This document shows, piece after piece, positions 32,269 to 63,263 of a DNA stretch of 64,000 nt. Source of the stretch: an uncultured Anaerolineales bacterium (GTDB taxonomy: Bacteria > Chloroflexota > Anaerolineae > B4-G1); the NCBI GenBank assembly GCA_964421785.1, contig CAYQZG010000001.1:73853-137852 (forward strand), given 5' to 3'. Made by a program: the position numbers and the translations under genes. The stretch's first letter is position 1. The number at the start of each line of letters is the position of its first letter. Below the pieces are notes generated by a model, which searched no databases, was not told where the DNA came from, and worked only from the letters and a program-made list of their open reading frames with translations.

Positions 32269-33159
32269 ATGGTCATTCTTGTGGAGGATCTTGTCAAGCA
32301 TTACGATGATGTGGTTGCTGTCGACCAACTCTCATTCGAGGTGGAAAGGGGGGAGCTCTTTGGGCTCCTCGGTCCCAACGGCGCAGGTAAGACAACTACG
32401 ATCCGGATCGTGATGGATATTCTTCAGCCTGATGCAGGGCGTGTGAGGATCCTGGGGCAGCGCCCGGGCGAGGCCAAAGAGCGCGTCGGCTATCTGCCAG
32501 AGGAGAGAGGATTATACCGCGATGTCAAGGTGCTTGACATGTTGGTGTATCTGGCGGAGTTGAAGGGCGTATCGCGAGCAATGGCCCGTGATCGGGCACA
32601 AGGGTTGCTTGAGCGAATCCGCCTGGATGACTGGGCCGACCGCAAAGTGAAGGATCTGAGCAGGGGGATGCAGCAGCGGCTTCAGTTCATCGCCAGCCTG
32701 GTGCACGACCCAGATCTGCTCATCCTTGATGAGCCATTCCAAGGACTGGATCCGGTCAATACCGAGCGGCTCAAGGCGTTCGTCGACGATTTGCGTGGGG
32801 CAGGTAAGACTATCGTGCTCAGCACCCATCAGATGAACCTGGTGGAGGCATTGTGCGACCGGATTCTCCTGATCGATAGTGGGCGTGCGGTCCTCTACGG
32901 TCGTCTAGACGAGATCAAGGAGCAGAACGCTCCCAACACGATCCGGTTGCGTGCCGAAGAGGTGCCCGCCGAGCTGCCAGGAGTTCTGTCCGTAGAGCCG
33001 AGCGATGGTGCTTTCAATCTGACCCTGGCCGATGGAATGGATCCGCAAGAAGTGCTGCGGAGTCTGGTGGAGCTGGGTACTCGAGTTCGCGAGTTCGAGG
33101 TGGCTCCGGTGCCGTTGGAGGACATCTTTGTGGATGTTGTTGGTGGGGAGGAGGTCTAG
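32269..33159 (+). CDS. ABC transporter ATP-binding protein (ABC-2/DrrA-like exporter ATPase)
   Basis: Walker A GPNGAGKTT, signature LSRGMQQRL, Walker B LLILDEP; start set at MVILVEDLVKHYDD. Confidence 0.85.
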   Translation: MVILVEDLVKHYDDVVAVDQLSFEVERGELFGLLGPNGAGKTTTIRIVMDILQPDAGRVRILGQRPGEAKERVGYLPEERGLYRDVKVLDMLVYLAELKGVSRAMARDRAQGLLERIRLDDWADRKVKDLSRGMQQRLQFIASLVHDPDLLILDEPFQGLDPVNTERLKAFVDDLRGAGKTIVLSTHQMNLVEALCDRILLIDSGRAVLYGRLDEIKEQNAPNTIRLRAEEVPAELPGVLSVEPSDGAFNLTLADGMDPQEVLRSLVELGTRVREFEVAPVPLEDIFVDVVGGEEV

Positions 33160-33163
33160 TTCT

Positions 33164-34417
33164 ATGCATTGGCGCAAGATCTTGGTGATTGCCCGCCACG
33201 AATACTTGACCAACGTGAAGCGACTGGGGTTCATTATCATGACCGCGATCGTGCCTGCGCTTGGTATTCTAGGGCTCTTGGTAGCCACGATCCTCGGGGG
33301 GGAAGCTCGCAAGATTGGTGATTTCTTGGAGAGGCAGTTTACGGGTGACGAGAAGCCTTCCGCCGTTGTGGACAGTTCGGGAATCTTTGCCTCGATACAA
33401 CCCGAATACCAGGAGAATTTCGTTCTTTATCAGGGTGAGGATGCGGCGAAAGAGGCGCTTGAGGCTGAACAGATCTCCAAAGCGCTGTTGATCCCGGAGG
33501 ATTACTTAGAGACAGGGAGAGTCGTTGTGCTGACTCAGGGTAGTGGCTTCGGAGCGGTGGAAGCGAGCGATTCGTCTGAGGTGCAAGCGTTCTTTGTCGA
33601 CCACTTACTGTTGGGGCGGGTCGATCAGGCTGTTCGTGAACGGGCTGCCAGGCCGTTGAAGACGGAGGCAAAGGTGATATCAAAGGGAAAGACGCGCGGT
33701 GAGGGGCCTTTGAGCTTCGTCTTTACCTTTGTCATTCCCTACGTACTGTCGTTCTTTCTGATCATGACGATCTTTGTTTCATCGGGTTATCTTCTGCGCA
33801 GTGTCGCGGAGGAGAAGGAGACGCGAGTCGTTGAACTCGTCATCTCTTCGGTTCGCCCGATGGAGCTTATGGCGGGTAAGGTGGCCGGGCTGGGCGCTCT
33901 TGGCCTGACCCAGGTGTTGATCTGGCTGGTGAGCACCGTGGCATTCAGCGGCGGTCTGGTGGCACTGGTGGCAGCCGCGGGGGCCGTCTTGGTACCGGTC
34001 CGTGTGATGGTTCTGGGTGTTGTCTACTACCTGCTCGGCTATACGCTCTACGCGATCTTGATGGCAGGGATTGGTGCACTGGGCACCACGATGCAGGAGA
34101 GCCAGCAGCTGGCCGGCTTCTTCTCCTTCTTTGCTGCCATACCCTATATGCTAAGCGGATTCCTTTTCACCAATCCCAACGCTCTCTTGGCGCGAGTGCT
34201 TAGCTTCTTTCCCCTGACCGCGCCAACGATGATGATGCTACGTTTGCCCCTCGCCGAGTTGCCCTGGGTGGACGTGGTCGGCAGCGTGGTGGTTTTGGTC
34301 GTTTCTCTCCCGATAGCCCTGTGGTTGGGGGCGAAGCTGTTCCGTGTCGGGCTGCTCATCTACGGGAAGCGCCCTACGCTGAAGGAGATTTGGGGGATTG
34401 TGACGAGTAGTGGGTAG
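33164..34417 (+). CDS. ABC-2 family transporter permease
   Basis: Immediately downstream of ATPase; about 6 TM helices with large first extracellular loop typical of ABC-2 permeases; start at internal Met MHWRKILV. Confidence 0.7.
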   Translation: MHWRKILVIARHEYLTNVKRLGFIIMTAIVPALGILGLLVATILGGEARKIGDFLERQFTGDEKPSAVVDSSGIFASIQPEYQENFVLYQGEDAAKEALEAEQISKALLIPEDYLETGRVVVLTQGSGFGAVEASDSSEVQAFFVDHLLLGRVDQAVRERAARPLKTEAKVISKGKTRGEGPLSFVFTFVIPYVLSFFLIMTIFVSSGYLLRSVAEEKETRVVELVISSVRPMELMAGKVAGLGALGLTQVLIWLVSTVAFSGGLVALVAAAGAVLVPVRVMVLGVVYYLLGYTLYAILMAGIGALGTTMQESQQLAGFFSFFAAIPYMLSGFLFTNPNALLARVLSFFPLTAPTMMMLRLPLAELPWVDVVGSVVVLVVSLPIALWLGAKLFRVGLLIYGKRPTLKEIWGIVTSSG

Positions 34418-34563: not shown

Positions 34564-35829
34564 TCAGGCCCGTTCCTTCAGCCAAGTGACCAGCAGGTTC
34601 AAGTCAACGTCTATCTGATCCCCCGATGTCATGTCGCGCACGGTGGCCTTTCCGCTCTCCAGTTCGTTCTCTCCGAGGATGACGGTGTAACGCACCGCAC
34701 GCTTGTCAGCTTCGCGGAGCTGGCTCCTCAGTCCGCGGTTTCTTCCCATCGCCAGGTAGACCCCCACATCCGCACGGCGGAGTGCATCCATCAGCTTCAG
34801 AGATTCTTCGCGAGGCTTCTCACCCAGGTAGGCGAGGAAGATCTCGGGGGTCCTTGGGGCGGGAGGCCCCACTTCCAATGCTTTCATCGTGATGACGATC
34901 CGCTCCAGCCCTATGGCCACACCAACGCCCGGGGTCTCTGGACCACCCAGGAGATCGGTCAGTCCGTCGTACCGCCCCCCGCCGCACAGGGCGCTCTGCG
35001 CGCCGATCCCGGATGCCCAGACTTCGAAGACGGTTTTCGTATAGTAGTCCAGCCCGCGCACCAGCCGGTGGTTGAGCACGTATCGCCGGTTAAGCAGCTC
35101 TAGATATTCCCGCAGACGGGTAAAGTGTTCTCTACATTCATCGCATAGGTAGTCTACGATACGAGGTGCCTTTTCGATGATGGGCTGACACTGTTCATCC
35201 TTGCAGTCGAGCACGCGGAGAGGGCTTCGCTCCAGCCGTCGTCGGCAATCCTCGCAGACTTCATCATCGTGTCTGCGATAGTGATCCTCTAACGCTTCCA
35301 CGTACTTTGGGCGACAGCGGGGGCAGCCGGTGGAGTTCAGCTGGAACTCCAGGTCTGGGATACCGAGGCCGGCGTAGAGATCCCATACCAGCATCATAAT
35401 CTCTAGATCGGCAGCTGGGTCTTGTTCGCCAAGAATCTCGGCGTTGAACTGCGTGAACTGACGATAGCGACCGGCCTGAGGGCGATCGTAGCGAAAGGTT
35501 GGCCCTATGGAATAGAGTTTCTGCGGTTTGACTTCCACGTGGAGACCGTTCTCGATATAGGCCCGCACGACGCCAGCCGTAAACTCGGGGCGGAGCGTGA
35601 GGTCGCGCCCGCCTTTGTCGGTGAAGTTGTACATCTCCTTGTCTACAACGTCGGTGCCCTCGCCAATGCCGCGAGCGAATACCTCAGTGGCCTCGAAGAT
35701 GGGGATGTCGATACGTTCGAAGCCGGCCAGTTCGGCCAGATGCTTTGCGTGGCTGCGCAGGCGTGCCCAATAGGGCTGTTCCTCCGGCAGGATGTCTTGG
35801 GTTCCGGGTGGCCGCTGATAAGGTGGCAT
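34564..35829 (-). CDS. hisS: histidine--tRNA ligase
   Basis: Class II aaRS motifs and HisRS-specific signature; C-terminal anticodon-binding domain; 421 aa. Confidence 0.9.
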   Translation of the reverse strand: MPPYQRPPGTQDILPEEQPYWARLRSHAKHLAELAGFERIDIPIFEATEVFARGIGEGTDVVDKEMYNFTDKGGRDLTLRPEFTAGVVRAYIENGLHVEVKPQKLYSIGPTFRYDRPQAGRYRQFTQFNAEILGEQDPAADLEIMMLVWDLYAGLGIPDLEFQLNSTGCPRCRPKYVEALEDHYRRHDDEVCEDCRRRLERSPLRVLDCKDEQCQPIIEKAPRIVDYLCDECREHFTRLREYLELLNRRYVLNHRLVRGLDYYTKTVFEVWASGIGAQSALCGGGRYDGLTDLLGGPETPGVGVAIGLERIVITMKALEVGPPAPRTPEIFLAYLGEKPREESLKLMDALRRADVGVYLAMGRNRGLRSQLREADKRAVRYTVILGENELESGKATVRDMTSGDQIDVDLNLLVTWLKERA

Positions 35830-57374: not shown

Positions 57375-59237
57375 TTACGTTCCTTCACTCAGTGGGACAG
57401 TCAGCCTGACTTTTGTGCCCTCGTCAAGCCCTGAGGCTATCGATAGCTCTCCATTCGTCATCTCAGCCCGCTCGTGCATATTGACCAGGCCTAAGCTGCC
57501 TCGCCTATCATACGTCATCTGCACGGCATCAACGTCGAATCCTATTCCGTCATCCTCAACCTCGGCGACGAAAGCCTGTTCTCCCCGAAGATAGAGCCGC
57601 ACCCAGATGCTCTCTGCTTGTGAGTGTTTGCGCGCATTGGAGATAGCCTCCTCGACAATGTAGAAGACAATGCCTTGCGTTTCTTGATCGAGTGTCCCCT
57701 CCGCTGCGGATTCGGCCTCCAGCCTTATGACTGTGTCATCTGTCTCCGCCAGTTTGCTGATATACTGTTCCAGAGCTGCCCTAAGTCCTTGGGTTTCCAG
57801 AATAAGGGGGCGCAGTGTAAAGAGCATATGGCGAATCTGCTTCGTCGTCCGGCGAGCCAGATCCTCGATCTTTTGCAGTTCTTCGGAGACCTGATCTGTC
57901 CTACTGCCATTCTCTATCAACTTCCGAACGAAGCTGACCTGCATAGCGATTGATGCGATGCTCTGTGTTGGGCCGTCGTGGAGGTTTCGGGCCAGTTTCT
58001 TGCGGGCATCCTCCTCGACTGCTACGATGCGTTCTTTTTCTTCACGTAGGTCCTGATACAGCTGGGCGTTCTGAAGTGCGACAATGGCCTGGTTGCAGAT
58101 GGCAGTGAGAAGATTGACCAAGTTCTCTGTATAAATGTCTGGTTCGGAGTTGCCGAAGATCACGACTCCGAAGCTCTCAAACCCAGCGCGCAGCGGCACA
58201 ACGATGGCTTGCTTGCAGCTGTGTATGCCAATGAGCTTGCTCAACTCGGGATCATCGGTAGGGTCGTTGACGACAACGGCTTCCGCCGTCGTCAGCGCGT
58301 CGGCCAGTGCACCTTCCTTTCCCTGGAGGACGATGTTACGGTCCCGCGTTGGTAGATGTCTTGAAGCGACAATGCGCAGGTCACTGTGGGCGAAGAGAAG
58401 CACTGCGCCCATCTGGCTTGCCTTATCTCGGCCTAGTTCCTGCATGCCTTTCTCACCTACCTCAAGGACGGCCCTCAAGACCTTGCTGTAGTTCAGCGTT
58501 GCACTGAGCGTGCTTGCCAGTTCAAACGTGAGCCGTGAGTGCTCACGGGCAGCACGGAGCTTGCGACGTTCGCTATCTATCTTGTCTTGCTGACTCCGGG
58601 CTGCGCTCTTCTTCGTCTCCTCGGATACGAAGCTGCTGACGACGGCAGCTAACAGCAGTATCAGGGAGAAGACGATAAAGGAAAGGATATTTGACCATGA
58701 GCTGGGGAGCGAGACGAAATAGACGCCGCTAACGAAGCTGGCAATGACGGCGAGAGCAATGATCAAGCTGATAGGTTGCGAGAAGCGGTGTACCGCCGTG
58801 AGGACGGGGAAGAGAGCGAAGAACAACAGCGGGCTGGCAAGACCCCCTGAGCTAAGAATCAGCCCCAGGGTTAGAAGTGTATCCAGTACGAGTGTCAACA
58901 GCGGTAGGACGTGCGAGGCGGAGCTGTGCGAAAGGAAGAACAGAACGGCGGCATTGTAGAGTACCGCAGTGCCGAGGAGTAGAACCTGTGGGAGCAGTCT
59001 GTCGGCTTTGGGGATGCCTCTTGGCGACGCAAAGACATCCAAAAAGACCACGAGAGCAGCACCGATGAGCAGCAACCAACGCAAGTTGCTAATCACCCAG
59101 CCTACCTGAAACCAACGTTTGGTCGTCTCTTGCGCGGGCATAAGGGCCTTCCATATAGTGCCACGTGTCATCAGGGTGGCGATGGTGCCCAAACACCAAC
59201 GAAGCCGCGGCCTTCGAATGGGTTTTTCCCCCTCCAA
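57375..59237 (-). CDS. membrane GAF-domain sensor histidine kinase, HisKA_3 type
   Basis: N-terminal multi-TM, central GAF-like region, H-box NLHDGPTQSIASIAMQ, HATPase_c (DDGIGFD, GSLGLVNMHERAE). Confidence 0.8.
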   Translation of the reverse strand: MEGEKPIRRPRLRWCLGTIATLMTRGTIWKALMPAQETTKRWFQVGWVISNLRWLLLIGAALVVFLDVFASPRGIPKADRLLPQVLLLGTAVLYNAAVLFFLSHSSASHVLPLLTLVLDTLLTLGLILSSGGLASPLLFFALFPVLTAVHRFSQPISLIIALAVIASFVSGVYFVSLPSSWSNILSFIVFSLILLLAAVVSSFVSEETKKSAARSQQDKIDSERRKLRAAREHSRLTFELASTLSATLNYSKVLRAVLEVGEKGMQELGRDKASQMGAVLLFAHSDLRIVASRHLPTRDRNIVLQGKEGALADALTTAEAVVVNDPTDDPELSKLIGIHSCKQAIVVPLRAGFESFGVVIFGNSEPDIYTENLVNLLTAICNQAIVALQNAQLYQDLREEKERIVAVEEDARKKLARNLHDGPTQSIASIAMQVSFVRKLIENGSRTDQVSEELQKIEDLARRTTKQIRHMLFTLRPLILETQGLRAALEQYISKLAETDDTVIRLEAESAAEGTLDQETQGIVFYIVEEAISNARKHSQAESIWVRLYLRGEQAFVAEVEDDGIGFDVDAVQMTYDRRGSLGLVNMHERAEMTNGELSIASGLDEGTKVRLTVPLSEGT

Positions 59238-59543
59238 GTAGCCACGGCTTTGAATCAGTGGGTGGGCTCAATAGGCCTTGGCTTTCTCGGAGCTCCTACG
59301 ACGTGAACGCAACACCGGCAAGAGAAATCGTCTCTTCGATCACAGCGCCCGCCCGAGCGCCCCACCGAGCCTCTGAGCACACGCGAATACCGCTACGTTG
59401 ACGGTGAGTGCGGTGGTTAACCACCGATGAGCACGGCTTTCCCGCACTCAAATCGCCAGACTCGCGGCTGGTTCCATCGACAAAGCTCCCCGTATACCAG
59501 CCGGCGAGCTTCAGGGCTCAGAAGCACCCAGCAAGTCAAGAAG

Positions 59544-59903
59544 TCAACTAGATGCCACACTCAGTTGCTCCTGTTCCTCCAAGAGCGTTCGCATGATCAG
59601 TAGGATGCGCCGGCGCTCATCCTCTGGTAGCTGATGAAATAGATAGAGGGCTTCTTTGATTCCAGGCGAATCCTCAGGGGCATGGGGCAGCAAACCAGCC
59701 TCGCGGAAGATCCTCTCCGGAGGGATGTGCAGTACCTCGCCCATTTTCCGACAGAGATCGGAGCTAGGATTACGTTTGCCGCTCACAACCCTGGAGATTG
59801 TAGATTCACTCACCTCGCAGCGCCGAGCGAACTCGCGCATCGACCAGCGTCTGTCGTCTAGTTCCTCCAACAACCACTTTCCAAAAGCAGATCTCTCTGT
59901 CAT
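59544..59903 (-). CDS. XRE-family helix-turn-helix transcriptional regulator
   Basis: HTH_3-like segment (SMREFARRCEVSESTISRVVSGKRNPS); start at internal Met MTERSAFGKW. Confidence 0.6.
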   Translation of the reverse strand: MTERSAFGKWLLEELDDRRWSMREFARRCEVSESTISRVVSGKRNPSSDLCRKMGEVLHIPPERIFREAGLLPHAPEDSPGIKEALYLFHQLPEDERRRILLIMRTLLEEQEQLSVASS

Positions 59904-60183
59904 CTCGGTGTCTCCGTTTGCATCTTGCAGACTATTTCTCTGCACTGCTCAAGGTCTGCGTGCATGTCATCAACGTTCATCGGCCTTCGGGCGATGGGTT
60001 CGAAAGGAAAGGGCTTGCCCATCTCGAGTGTACCCTATCAACCGAAGCACCAGTCAGCTCTAGAGCCTTTTTGGTCAGGCTCAGACATAGGCCGAGAATC
60101 GCAACAATCCTAGGTCAACCGTCACTATACAAGATTTCTCAGAACGTGTCAAGTTCCTCGACCACCAGACCAGCTGGTCAGCC

Positions 60184-61548
60184 TCACGTCGCTTCTTCTG
60201 GCGGGAAGATCTTCCCTGGATTCAGGATGTTTAACGGATCGAACGCTTGCTTGATACTTCGTTGTAGCTCAATCAGTTTCTCGTCCATCACCAACGGCAG
60301 GTAGTGTGCCCGCTTCGAACCGATACCGTGCTCACCGCTGATTGTGCCACCTAGCCTGGCGACTACCGCATATAGCTCCTCCAGAATCGCCGGCAGCTTT
60401 TCGTCCCACTCGTCCATAGGCGTCTCTGGTCGCTTGACGACGGTGGCGTGCAAATTGCCGTCTCCAGCGTGACCGTAGCAGGGAATCAGCACATCGTACG
60501 TCTCTGAAAGACGATCCAGCTCCGGCATCAAGTCGGGGATCTGAGCCATCGGTACCACGATGTCCTCCAGACTCTGCACCGGGCAGATCGCCTTCAGGGC
60601 TTCGGCCATCTCCTGGCGGGGGCGCCACATCCGACGCTCGTCACGGGGAGTGTTTCCCACGAATATGTCTAGCGCGCCCAGCTCCAGGCAGAGCTCAATG
60701 ATGCTGTTCATATCATGCTCGACATGATCCTCGCTTGTGCCATCGATTTCGATGAGGAGCATGGCGCCCACATCGGGGTGGGGGAGACGCTCGCCAGTGT
60801 AGTCATAGGCGGCCTGGATTGAGCGTTGATCCATGAACTCGACCGAGGTGGGGACGATGCGACCTTTGGTCATAACGCGAGGCACCGCGCCGATGGCAGT
60901 GCGCGTATCCGGGAAGGGGACCAGCAGCACTGCCCGGGCGGTAGGGCGGGGGAGCAGTCGCAGGGTGATCTTGGTGAAGATCCCCAGCGTCCCCTCGGAG
61001 CCAACCATCAGGTGGATCATATCGTAGCCGGTGACGTCCTTGACCCGTTTGCCTCCTAATTGAATGATCTCACCTGTCGGCAGCACCACCTCCAGGCCTA
61101 AAACGTACCGCCCGGTGACCCCGTACTTGATGGCCCGCCCGCCTCCGGCATTCTCCGCCACGTTGCCGCCCACGAAGCAGAGCTCCACGCTCATCGGGTA
61201 GCCGGCGTAGAAGAGCCCATATTCCTCGACAGCATTGTTGATGTCGTTCGTGACCACGCCGGGCTCGACCACCGCGACCATGTTCTCGCGGTCGATCTCC
61301 AGAATACGGTTCATCCGCTCAAGCGAGAGGACGATGCCCCCGTACACCGGCACGGCTCCGCAGGAGAGTCCCGACCCGGCGCCACGCGGCGTAACCGGTA
61401 CGCGCTCGCGGTTGGCGAGCTTCAGGATCTGCGAGACCTGCTGGGCGGTATCCGGCTTGACCACGACCTCCGGCATGTGGGCGTGCTCCTCGCCGGCTAC
61501 CTCGTCGTGGGCGTAGTCCTGCATGGCGCCGGGGTCGTCGGTGACCAC
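60184..61548 (-). CDS. FAD-linked oxidase (glycolate oxidase GlcD / D-lactate dehydrogenase family); N-terminus anomalous (see findings)
   Basis: FAD-binding PCMH domain (PRGAGSGLSCGAVP, VVEPGV) and C-terminal FAD-oxidase_C; only GTG start available. Confidence 0.8.
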   Translation of the reverse strand: MVTDDPGAMQDYAHDEVAGEEHAHMPEVVVKPDTAQQVSQILKLANRERVPVTPRGAGSGLSCGAVPVYGGIVLSLERMNRILEIDRENMVAVVEPGVVTNDINNAVEEYGLFYAGYPMSVELCFVGGNVAENAGGGRAIKYGVTGRYVLGLEVVLPTGEIIQLGGKRVKDVTGYDMIHLMVGSEGTLGIFTKITLRLLPRPTARAVLLVPFPDTRTAIGAVPRVMTKGRIVPTSVEFMDQRSIQAAYDYTGERLPHPDVGAMLLIEIDGTSEDHVEHDMNSIIELCLELGALDIFVGNTPRDERRMWRPRQEMAEALKAICPVQSLEDIVVPMAQIPDLMPELDRLSETYDVLIPCYGHAGDGNLHATVVKRPETPMDEWDEKLPAILEELYAVVARLGGTISGEHGIGSKRAHYLPLVMDEKLIELQRSIKQAFDPLNILNPGKIFPPEEAT

Positions 61549-61640
61549 GTGCGATTCTCCGACGATGTCACGCAGCCCGTCGATGAGGGGAGCGTTGACG
61601 GGGTTGTACGGCCCGGCATTTGGGATGGTTGGCTGGTAAC

Positions 61641-63263
61641 TCAGGACTTGCCTCCGCTGATCATATAGAGCTGACCACGTTTGAAGCCGCGCTCTCGATA
61701 ATAAGGTCGCGTGCCGATGGCGGCGATGACGGCCAGGCGCTCGTAGCCCGCCCGACGGGTGATGCGCTTGGTCTCATCGATCAGCTGCGTGCCCAGGCCC
61801 GCATGCTGAGGGGCTGTCTCAAGCTCCGAGCCCAACCCTAGCGCTGGGCCGTAGACGTGCACCTCCCGGATCATGGCACAGCCCCGTAGTTCACTGATGG
61901 GACGCCTGGCCTCCGGGAGCGAAAGACGCAGGAAACCGGCCAGATCTCCCTCCGGGGTGACGTACTGGAGGAAGCGCTCCTGTGTGGCGTCGGTTTCGTA
62001 GCTCACGCTCTCCAGCTGGAGCTCATCGGGGTCTATAGGCTCATCCCGTATCTCCCGACATCGAATGCAGCGACAGGTCTGGCCCTCCCGTGCCATATGC
62101 TGCTGGACGATCTGACGAAGGTTCGATTTCTTCACCCCGGCCACGATGTTGGGCGCGGGGATGTCGCGCATCAGCCGGTTGACGCGGCAGTAGGGCGGGA
62201 TGAGTGTCTTGCAGCGGGATAGCAGATGCACCATCGTCTCTTCATCGTATGGCTCGAATTCGCCGCGCTTCCACAGCTCGTACAGCTCCGTCTCCTCCAG
62301 AAGCGCCGTGGGATAGATCTTCAGCTCATCGGGCCGCATGGCCGGATCCCGCCACAGTCGCTTGAAGTCCTCCAGGTCACTCTCGGGGCTCGCGCCCAGG
62401 AGGTTGGGCATCCAGTGGACGACGATCTTGAAGCCGCCCAGGCGCAGCAGGCGCATCGCGCGACGCGTGTCGGCGACGGTGTGGCCCCGCTTGTTGAGGG
62501 CCAGGATCTCGTCGTCCAGACTCTGTACACCGAGCTGCACCTTCGTCGCCCCCAGCCGGCGCAGCCGCCGGATCTCCTCCGGGGTGATGAGGTCGGGGCG
62601 CGTCTCCACGACCAGGCCGACGTTGCGGCGCTCGGCGGTCTCGTTGAGCACCTGGGCCTCCTCCAGCGAGCCGGCCTCGACGCCGTTCATGGCGTCCAGG
62701 CAGCGACGAACGAACCACGTTTGGTACGACGCTGGATAGGCGGACCAGGATCCTCCCAGGATGAGCAGCTCGATCTTGTCCACGCTGTGGCCGATCTCGC
62801 GCAGCGTGGCGATGCGGCTGGCGGTCTGATCGTACGGGTCGAAGTGGTGCGTCGCGGCGCGCATGGCGCCGGGCTCGTCAGGCAGGTAGCTCTTGGGCAT
62901 GCCGGCCGGCTCCGGGCAGAAGATGCACTCGCCTGGGCAGGGATGCGGCTCGGTGAGCACCGCCACCGGCGCCACACCGGAGATCGTGCGCGTCGGCTTG
63001 ACCCGCAGCCGGCGCACGAGGGCGGGATCGGGCGAGCGGTTCTCACGCCTGCACAGCTCGCGGTAGCCCTTGATGATGCGATCCTTGGAGAGCATGTCGC
63101 CGTTGGGCAGCGTGTGGCTGCGCATAATCTGCGACAGCTCCTTCTGCGACAGATCGGGCCTCTCGCGAACCTCGTCCAGGATAGCCATCAGCACGTCGCC
63201 GTGTTCATCCAGGTCGAAGGACTGCCGATGTGCCTTTTGCCAACGCTCCTTATCTCTAGCCAC
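61641..63263 (-). CDS. elp3: Elp3-family radical SAM + GNAT protein (tRNA uridine(34) acetyltransferase homolog)
   Basis: 540 aa; radical SAM CxxxCxxC (CPGECIFCP), Elp3 collinearity, C-terminal GNAT. Confidence 0.8.
   Translation of the reverse strand: MARDKERWQKAHRQSFDLDEHGDVLMAILDEVRERPDLSQKELSQIMRSHTLPNGDMLSKDRIIKGYRELCRRENRSPDPALVRRLRVKPTRTISGVAPVAVLTEPHPCPGECIFCPEPAGMPKSYLPDEPGAMRAATHHFDPYDQTASRIATLREIGHSVDKIELLILGGSWSAYPASYQTWFVRRCLDAMNGVEAGSLEEAQVLNETAERRNVGLVVETRPDLITPEEIRRLRRLGATKVQLGVQSLDDEILALNKRGHTVADTRRAMRLLRLGGFKIVVHWMPNLLGASPESDLEDFKRLWRDPAMRPDELKIYPTALLEETELYELWKRGEFEPYDEETMVHLLSRCKTLIPPYCRVNRLMRDIPAPNIVAGVKKSNLRQIVQQHMAREGQTCRCIRCREIRDEPIDPDELQLESVSYETDATQERFLQYVTPEGDLAGFLRLSLPEARRPISELRGCAMIREVHVYGPALGLGSELETAPQHAGLGTQLIDETKRITRRAGYERLAVIAAIGTRPYYRERGFKRGQLYMISGGKS

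Follow-up and report, generated by a model that had tools for sequence, protein, structure and literature searches.

The stretch of DNA considered here, which we call the window, comprises 64,000 nucleotides from an uncultured Anaerolineales bacterium (assembly GCA_964421785.1, contig CAYQZG010000001.1, positions 73,853 to 137,852 of the forward strand). Towards its end, the minus strand carries two co-directional genes: elp3, which encodes a radical SAM/GNAT tRNA-modification enzyme, and a gene for a GlcD-like oxidase linked to flavin adenine dinucleotide (FAD). We propose that the second gene probably starts at a CTG codon that overlaps the stop codon of the first. The features on which the argument turns are listed here in window coordinates.

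61641..63263, minus strand: elp3, as given in the list of open reading frames; its 5' end is the first canonical start (GTG) and is putative.
61643..61641, minus strand: TGA stop codon of elp3, following a C-terminal end that reads ...LYMISGGKS.
61651..61655, minus strand: GGAGG Shine-Dalgarno motif, 6 nucleotides before the CTG and within the Gly-Gly codons (GGA GGC) of the Elp3 tail.
61642..61644, minus strand: CTG, the proposed oxidase start, forming CTGA with the elp3 stop (61644..61641), a -4 overlap.
61549..61641, minus strand: codons 2-32 of the oxidase (31 codons, SYQPTIPNAGPYNPVNAPLIDGLRDIVGESH), a variable linker followed by a conserved N-terminal helix, lying before any canonical start.
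61546..61548, minus strand: GTG (Val33), the first canonical oxidase start and the rival initiation site, with GGAG at 61560..61557, 8 nucleotides upstream.
60184..61644, minus strand: the GlcD-like FAD-linked oxidase at the full length proposed here, 486 codons and a stop.
61617..61619, minus strand: ATG in the elp3 frame and out of the oxidase frame, opening an unsupported 40-codon reading frame and not conserved in relatives.

The upstream protein carries the Pfam domains Radical_SAM and Radical_SAM_C and scores 524.7 bits against the NCBIfam model TIGR01211 (ELP3), well above the cut-off of 350. The downstream protein combines FAD_binding_4 with FAD-oxidase_C, and its best solved homologue is LctD (7qh2_C, E = 1.6e-106). 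Because it falls below both NCBIfam GlcD equivalog cut-offs (TIGR00387, 424.8 against 567.9; NF008408, 308.5 against 897), we name it GlcD-like rather than GlcD. When the window's Elp3 protein was looked up by exact match in public assemblies, nothing was returned.

A preliminary description of the locus had the two genes in one frame, separated by a single TGA. Three-frame translation places the oxidase in the elp3 frame -1, and the TGA overlaps the CTG codon of the oxidase frame rather than separating the two open reading frames. Beyond the TGA, the elp3 frame reads VTSQPSQMPGRTTPSTLPSS... and stops after 47 codons, having passed the ATG at 61619..61617; the oxidase frame reads ...RRQVLSYQPTIPNAGPYNPV... 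across the junction and ...DQRRQVLSYQPTIPNAGPYNPVNAPLIDGLRDIVGESH-V(GTG)VTDD up to its first canonical start. The continuous upstream peptide that had been reported was spliced by a one-base slip from 'VTSQPSQ' in the elp3 frame and 'NAGPYNP...' in the oxidase frame, and the ATG was misread as part of 'QNAG'. Other parts of that description hold: elp3 does end in ...YMISGGKS-TGA, and the GTG at 61548 is the first ATG, GTG or TTG of the oxidase frame, which has no canonical start for 75 codons upstream of it. The statement that no canonical start lies between the TGA and this GTG is right for the oxidase frame and wrong for the elp3 frame, which contains the ATG. The base in dispute is the wobble position of the last elp3 codon, which is TCC or CCC in the lineages with CTG (AGC in L159) and CCG, CAG, GCG, CCT or CGT in others; a synonymous change in elp3 can hence toggle the start codon of the oxidase.

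The segment between the CTG and the GTG is part of the protein family. The peptide PYNPVNAPLIDGLRDIVGESH, encoded just before the GTG at 61548, is the conserved family N-terminus, and solved homologues align onto it from their residues 4-15. Among 120 close homologues from the Anaerolineae and Chloroflexota (75-90% identity), nearly all start upstream of the conserved block Y-x-P-V-T-x-x-I-x-x-x-L-R-x-I-V-G-E-x-H, and the distinct canonical N-termini hold Tyr13 in 78 of 79 cases and Leu24 and Gly29 in all 79. A canonical start precedes the conserved peptide in 105 of 110 orthologous loci; with one lineage added later (L159), the only lineages lacking such a start upstream of Tyr13, among about 111 loci, are the six with CTGA at the junction. 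It had been suspected from the outset that a conserved GlcD-like N-terminus precedes the first canonical start, and both the alignment of solved homologues and these counts bear this out. The preliminary description had allowed that the match might be coincidental, with orthologues sharing the arrangement, a GTG start and an upstream peptide that is not conserved; comparison of the orthologous junctions finds the peptide conserved at the protein level. An AlphaFold2 model of the oxidase, of mediocre overall quality (mean predicted local distance difference test, pLDDT, 65.5), is confident over residues 11-40 (pLDDT 82-94) and places a helix at residues 18-28.

For the comparison of junctions we drew on 155 related loci from genome and metagenome collections, plus targeted contigs; the junction DNA alignment covered 14 elp3-linked loci and then three later additions. 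All loci with elp3 directly upstream align to the window without indels in the oxidase frame. The annotated oxidase start of the relatives is an NTG overlapping the elp3 stop, and the window's CTG falls in the same alignment column. This NTGA overlap between co-directional genes is conserved in 12 lineages of the clade, as GTGA in four (L002, L003, L119, L157), TTGA in two (L036, L118) and CTGA in six (the window, L159, L001, L156, L081/L158 and L006), so that the near-cognate codon occupies exactly the position of the canonical start in its orthologues. L159 is the closest relative and shares the window's Elp3 tail, ISGGKS*. L081 (JGI) and L158 (ENA) represent one organism assembled twice, independently (99.8% nucleotide identity), and both read CTGA. 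Two groups of loci depart from the pattern. L082, L007 and L083 have CTGA, yet with a TTG 8 nucleotides downstream. L076 and L077 carry a 14-nucleotide insertion at the elp3 3' end, about 14 nucleotides before the aligned NTG, which brings an earlier stop (ATGA) and separates the genes, their oxidase starting at a TTG in the aligned position. Neighbour-joining trees of the oxidase resolve only the pair L001 and L156 (89% bootstrap), and a single origin of the CTG lineages, tested as monophyly of five of the six, received 2%. Whether through persistence or through recurrence, CTG is present in lineages that share 80-90% protein identity.

The initiation signal in front of this codon is widespread as well. 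In nearly all elp3-linked lineages, GGAG or GGAGG lies 5-7 nucleotides upstream of the NTG, and in the six CTG lineages the motif is GGAGG or GGAGGG in four, GGAG in one and GGGGG in one, always 5-7 nucleotides before the CTG. The spacing falls within the 5-9 nucleotides looked for, and the motifs are at least as strong as those of the GTG and TTG lineages. GGA is a minor glycine codon here (11 of 81 glycine codons in elp3 and the oxidase gene), and synonymous sites are saturated, lineages differing at 33-69% of them in the remainder of the oxidase gene; that the motif is retained all the same points to selection on it. The organism does make use of such motifs, since 19 of the 39 long-reading-frame starts in the window have a strong one, against a background of 16%. 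By minimum free energy, the junction RNA did not exceed shuffled sequence in stability (z = -0.2 to +1.5), and this fits an accessible initiation region. A scan of the whole window for further CTGA-type starts gave a single other candidate, at 34566 on the minus strand, where the stop of a long open reading frame overlaps a CTG that opens a 109-codon frame lacking a canonical start (G+C content at third codon positions 0.58). This candidate is probably the antisense shadow of the plus-strand gene at 33032..34417.

If the CTG lineages do translate codons 2-32, these codons should look like protein-coding sequence, and for the most part they do. The reading frame is intact in all six, with no stops and with in-frame indels only. 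Tyr13, Val16 and Leu24 are kept in six of six, and Thr17, Ile27, Val28 and Glu30 in five. Over the 20-codon helix block, differences per pair at first, second and third codon positions are 8.1, 4.3 and 8.3 among CTG lineages and 7.0, 4.6 and 9.0 among canonical ones. Scored with a position-specific scoring matrix (PSSM), the N-termini of the CTG lineages reach 20.7-40.4 bits and those of canonical elp3-linked relatives 17.7-48.2, against a mean of -6 and a 95th percentile of 16 in a simulation of neutral decay (p = 0.3, that is, 30% substitutions). The evidence is mixed, with caveats concerning Gly29 and the ratio of nonsynonymous to synonymous change that we take up below, but it mostly suggests that the upstream segment is under protein-level constraint in these lineages.

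On this comparative evidence, we consider it likely, though well short of certain, that the oxidase starts at the CTG at 61644..61642, overlapping the elp3 stop. We favour this codon because a Shine-Dalgarno motif followed by CTG at the stop overlap is the sole initiation signal common to all CTG lineages. The preliminary description was right about the kind of answer, a rare start codon, and wrong about the codon: the CTG in 'GLR' that it named (61575..61573) is the codon of Leu24, a residue that does not vary across the family. In the mechanism that we envisage, the GGAGG in the last elp3 codons, 6 nucleotides upstream, would position the ribosome on the CTG, and the initiator tRNA would read the near-cognate CUG as it presumably reads GUG or UUG in sister lineages. 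Initiation would probably be carried out largely by ribosomes that have just finished elp3, through termination-reinitiation coupling at the -4 overlap, and this coupling could offset the weakness of the codon. The product would be a 486-residue protein with the family's conserved N-terminal helix; it is possible that some additional initiation at the GTG at 61548 yields a shorter isoform. Should the CTG be used, tryptic peptides (f)M/L-SYQPTIPNAGPYNPVNAPLIDGLR or DIVGESHVVTDDPGAMQDYAHDEVAGEEHAHMPEVVVK are expected upstream of Val33. CTG is listed among the allowed starts in translation table 11. Stronger Shine-Dalgarno motifs have been found to accompany weaker start codons (PMC5622118), and a -4 overlap is the arrangement in which termination-reinitiation coupling is typically found (Huber et al. 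2023, PMC10666635).

Several points weigh against a CTG start. CUG is a genuine though weak start in E. coli, where it initiates at only 1-2% of the AUG level (Hecht et al.; bioRxiv 10.1101/063800), and switches from GUG to CUG occur at about 2e-4 (1/5,080 annotated GUG starts; PMC5622118). Plausible GGAG or GAGG motifs also precede GTG33 in the window and in L001. All six CTG N-terminal blocks fall in the lower 3-20% of the canonical PSSM distribution, although the scores of canonical elp3-linked relatives spread over much the same range. Gly29, part of the IVGE motif and present in 79 of 79 canonical N-termini, is replaced in four of the six CTG lineages; the window keeps it (codon 61560..61558), and L159, L001, L156 and L081 have Glu, Thr, Ser and Glu. 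Finally, the ratio of nonsynonymous to synonymous differences (pN/pS) over the 31 upstream codons is 0.76-1.8 among the window, L001 and L156, a figure that rests on small counts in a region that evolves fast in all lineages, against 0.38-0.81 in canonical pairs of similar divergence. This higher ratio stems from lower pS and not from higher pN. The rest of the oxidase gene, with pN/pS of 0.11-0.17, is under strong purifying selection, which means that the gene is functional and that its translation must begin somewhere.

The main rival gives a different answer as to where. According to it, the ancestral GTG or TTG start disappeared when the last elp3 codon changed synonymously, and the oxidase is now a truncated protein, initiated at the GTG at 61548 and shorter by 32 residues, while the peptide encoded upstream is a remnant in slow decay. 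This is the one explanation offered at the outset, an N-terminally truncated yet functional oxidase, that still competes with the CTG, and we regard it as unlikely but deserving of serious consideration. The weakness of CUG, the loss of Gly29, the low PSSM scores and a pN/pS of about 1 in the closest CTG pairs all speak for it, as do the suitable spacing of the GGAG before the window's GTG and the position of both Pfam domains of the oxidase, which lie beyond residue 57. Against it, the CTG lineages share no downstream start. The first canonical codon is the GTG of Val33 in the window, L001 and L156, and the one in L156 lacks a Shine-Dalgarno motif; in L006 it is a GTG at Val16. In L081 and L159, where the codon equivalent to Val33 is CTG and GTA, respectively, translation would be forced to the ATG of Met41/42, which has no Shine-Dalgarno motif, and would delete another conserved strand. 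A remnant would also have had to stay free of stops and frameshifts in six lineages that differ at 42-65% of the synonymous sites in other parts of the gene, to keep Tyr13, Val16 and Leu24 in all of them and to hold its second codon positions as constrained as in canonical lineages. The Shine-Dalgarno motif before the CTG has moreover been retained, and is stronger than in most GTG and TTG lineages.

Another rival, which we consider very improbable, has ribosomes slip by -1, whether in a programmed or an adventitious way, as they near the end of elp3, so as to produce an Elp3-oxidase fusion. The oxidase frame is exactly the elp3 frame -1, and it runs open from upstream into the oxidase: the five CTG lineages scanned have at least 44 open codons before the CTG, and L159, by informal count, about 31 visible ones. 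In every GTG or TTG lineage a stop lies 4-17 codons upstream, arising from at least five different synonymous changes. This association was made post hoc, and phylogeny confounds it, as do differences between Gln/Asn and Glu/Asp in the Elp3 tail. In the five CTG lineages other than L159, no X XXY YYZ slippery heptamer occurs within the final 60 codons of elp3, the scan giving only weak partial matches that are not shared among lineages, and the z values reported above leave no stable or conserved junction RNA structure. The GGAGG lies 4 nucleotides from the last sense codon, and such Shine-Dalgarno spacing goes with +1 rather than -1 shifts (prfB, dnaX).

In this contrast of upstream stops, the window (61644..61780, minus strand), L001, L156, L081, L006 and L159 form the open group, and L002, L003, L036, L118, L119, L157 and L082 the stopped one, the stops of the canonical lineages being formed by differing synonymous T-ending elp3 codons. 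The overall density of stops in the oxidase frame is similar in the CTG and canonical groups.

An error in sequencing or assembly, or a point mutation of very recent date, had also been put forward; whether taken to have destroyed the start or, as we considered, to have introduced a frameshift, it is hardly credible. The out-of-frame ATG at 61619..61617 does sit beside a CCGGGCC tract, where one added base would give MPGPYNPV. Against this, the junction is colinear with its relatives base for base in the oxidase frame, and five other diverged lineages, drawn from different projects and at 80-90% protein identity, also have CTGA, one of them in two independent assemblies. The specific candidate, a one-nucleotide indel in ATG-CCGGGCC-GTAC (61619..61606), was prompted by this ATG together with orthologue N-termini such as MSPYQPV and (V/M)TSQPTDPSAGSY, and is ruled out by the same colinearity; the resemblance between 'VTSQPSQ' and 'VTSQPTD' is a shared string, CAGCCAACC, read one base out of register. 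Readthrough of the TGA, programmed or through selenocysteine, is excluded as a source of a fusion, as the frames differ and readthrough would give the VTSQPSQMPGRTTPSTLPSS... peptide with its 47 codons and not the oxidase.

The free exchange of start codons at this overlap invites a broader conjecture. Among the lineages that keep the overlapping start, G, T and C interchange freely at its first base (six CTG, four GTG and two TTG lineages) in the face of a switch rate of about 2e-4, which leads us to suggest, as a doubtful and quite speculative idea, that the first base of a start codon at a -4 overlap is nearly neutral, ribosomes finishing elp3 being able to reinitiate on any NUG. If this were true in general, CTGA junctions would be bacterial start sites of a kind that has stayed hidden and is mis-annotated systematically. 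In a more exotic variant, ribosomes of the CTG lineages would reach the oxidase frame before the CTG; this would account for a frame that remains open only in those lineages, and would give an Elp3-oxidase fusion.

The surroundings of the two genes are conserved as well. From about 57375 to 63263 on the minus strand and beyond, the neighbourhood recurs across the clade (L001, L002, L156, L157, L158), with a conserved order of a divergent class I methyltransferase, elp3, the GlcD-like oxidase, a small HTH_3/XRE regulator and a GAF/HisKA_3 histidine kinase. Elp3 and a GlcD-like oxidase do not, to our knowledge, form a known complex. The tight and conserved overlap of their genes hints at an undescribed functional link in the Anaerolineae between a tRNA-modifying radical SAM enzyme and a flavoprotein of the 2-hydroxy-acid type. 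Orthologues of the oxidase with 67-80% identity also occur in metagenome-assembled genomes assigned to unrelated phyla (L021, L023-L029, L031, L032, L035 and L045, labelled Syntrophales or 'delta proteobacterium', and L060, labelled 'Phycisphaerae'), which suggests horizontal transfer or mis-binning.

In our view the gene pair is an ordinary one, and its proposed start signal, though unusual, belongs to a known type; the locus is an annotation-level curiosity and involves no new mechanism. It matters in practice all the same. With only ATG, GTG and TTG accepted as starts, standard gene callers would cut the oxidase short by 15-58 residues in every CTG lineage, by about 32 in the window. The public entries P0024, P0031, P0035, P0052 and P0066 (from L001, L156, L006, L159 and L158) are all N-terminally truncated, at 427-477 residues instead of about 481-486, each cut at a different downstream codon, because gene callers reject CTG as a start. 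Such truncated models spread into protein databases and structure predictions. The junction also offers a comparative example in which a normally very weak CUG start appears to persist over long divergence, and this persistence coincides with a strong Shine-Dalgarno motif and a stop/start overlap, which could compensate for the weakness of the codon. It may serve as a simple and testable setting in which to ask whether the requirements on start codons are relaxed by termination-reinitiation.

The oxidase itself is best compared with the FAD-linked 2-hydroxy-acid oxidoreductases of the GlcD/LctD type (VAO/PCMH family). It differs from them in scoring under the equivalog cut-offs and in that no adjoining glcE/glcF or etfAB was seen; it shares their FAD_binding_4 and FAD-oxidase_C architecture, and resembles LctD (7qh2_C) and the actinobacterial glycolate oxidase (9qgz) over its full length, the N-terminal helix included. 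The proposed start, for its part, resembles near-cognate CUG initiation as described in bacteria, in that an NUG follows a Shine-Dalgarno motif at canonical spacing, precedes a conserved protein and sits exactly at the GTG or TTG position of the orthologues. Usage has been measured in E. coli, whereas here it is deduced from comparative data, and CTG is found in six of the 12 lineages that keep the -4 overlap start, in contrast to the rate of about 2e-4 for such switches among annotated starts. The closest parallel for the junction as a whole is termination-reinitiation at -4 overlaps of the trpB-trpA type (ATGA, GTGA or TTGA). Although the overlapping start here would be CTG rather than ATG, GTG or TTG, and coupling is read from the geometry, the two arrangements have in common a same-strand, four-nucleotide overlap of stop and start, conserved across the clade, and a Shine-Dalgarno motif placed inside the last codons of the upstream gene.

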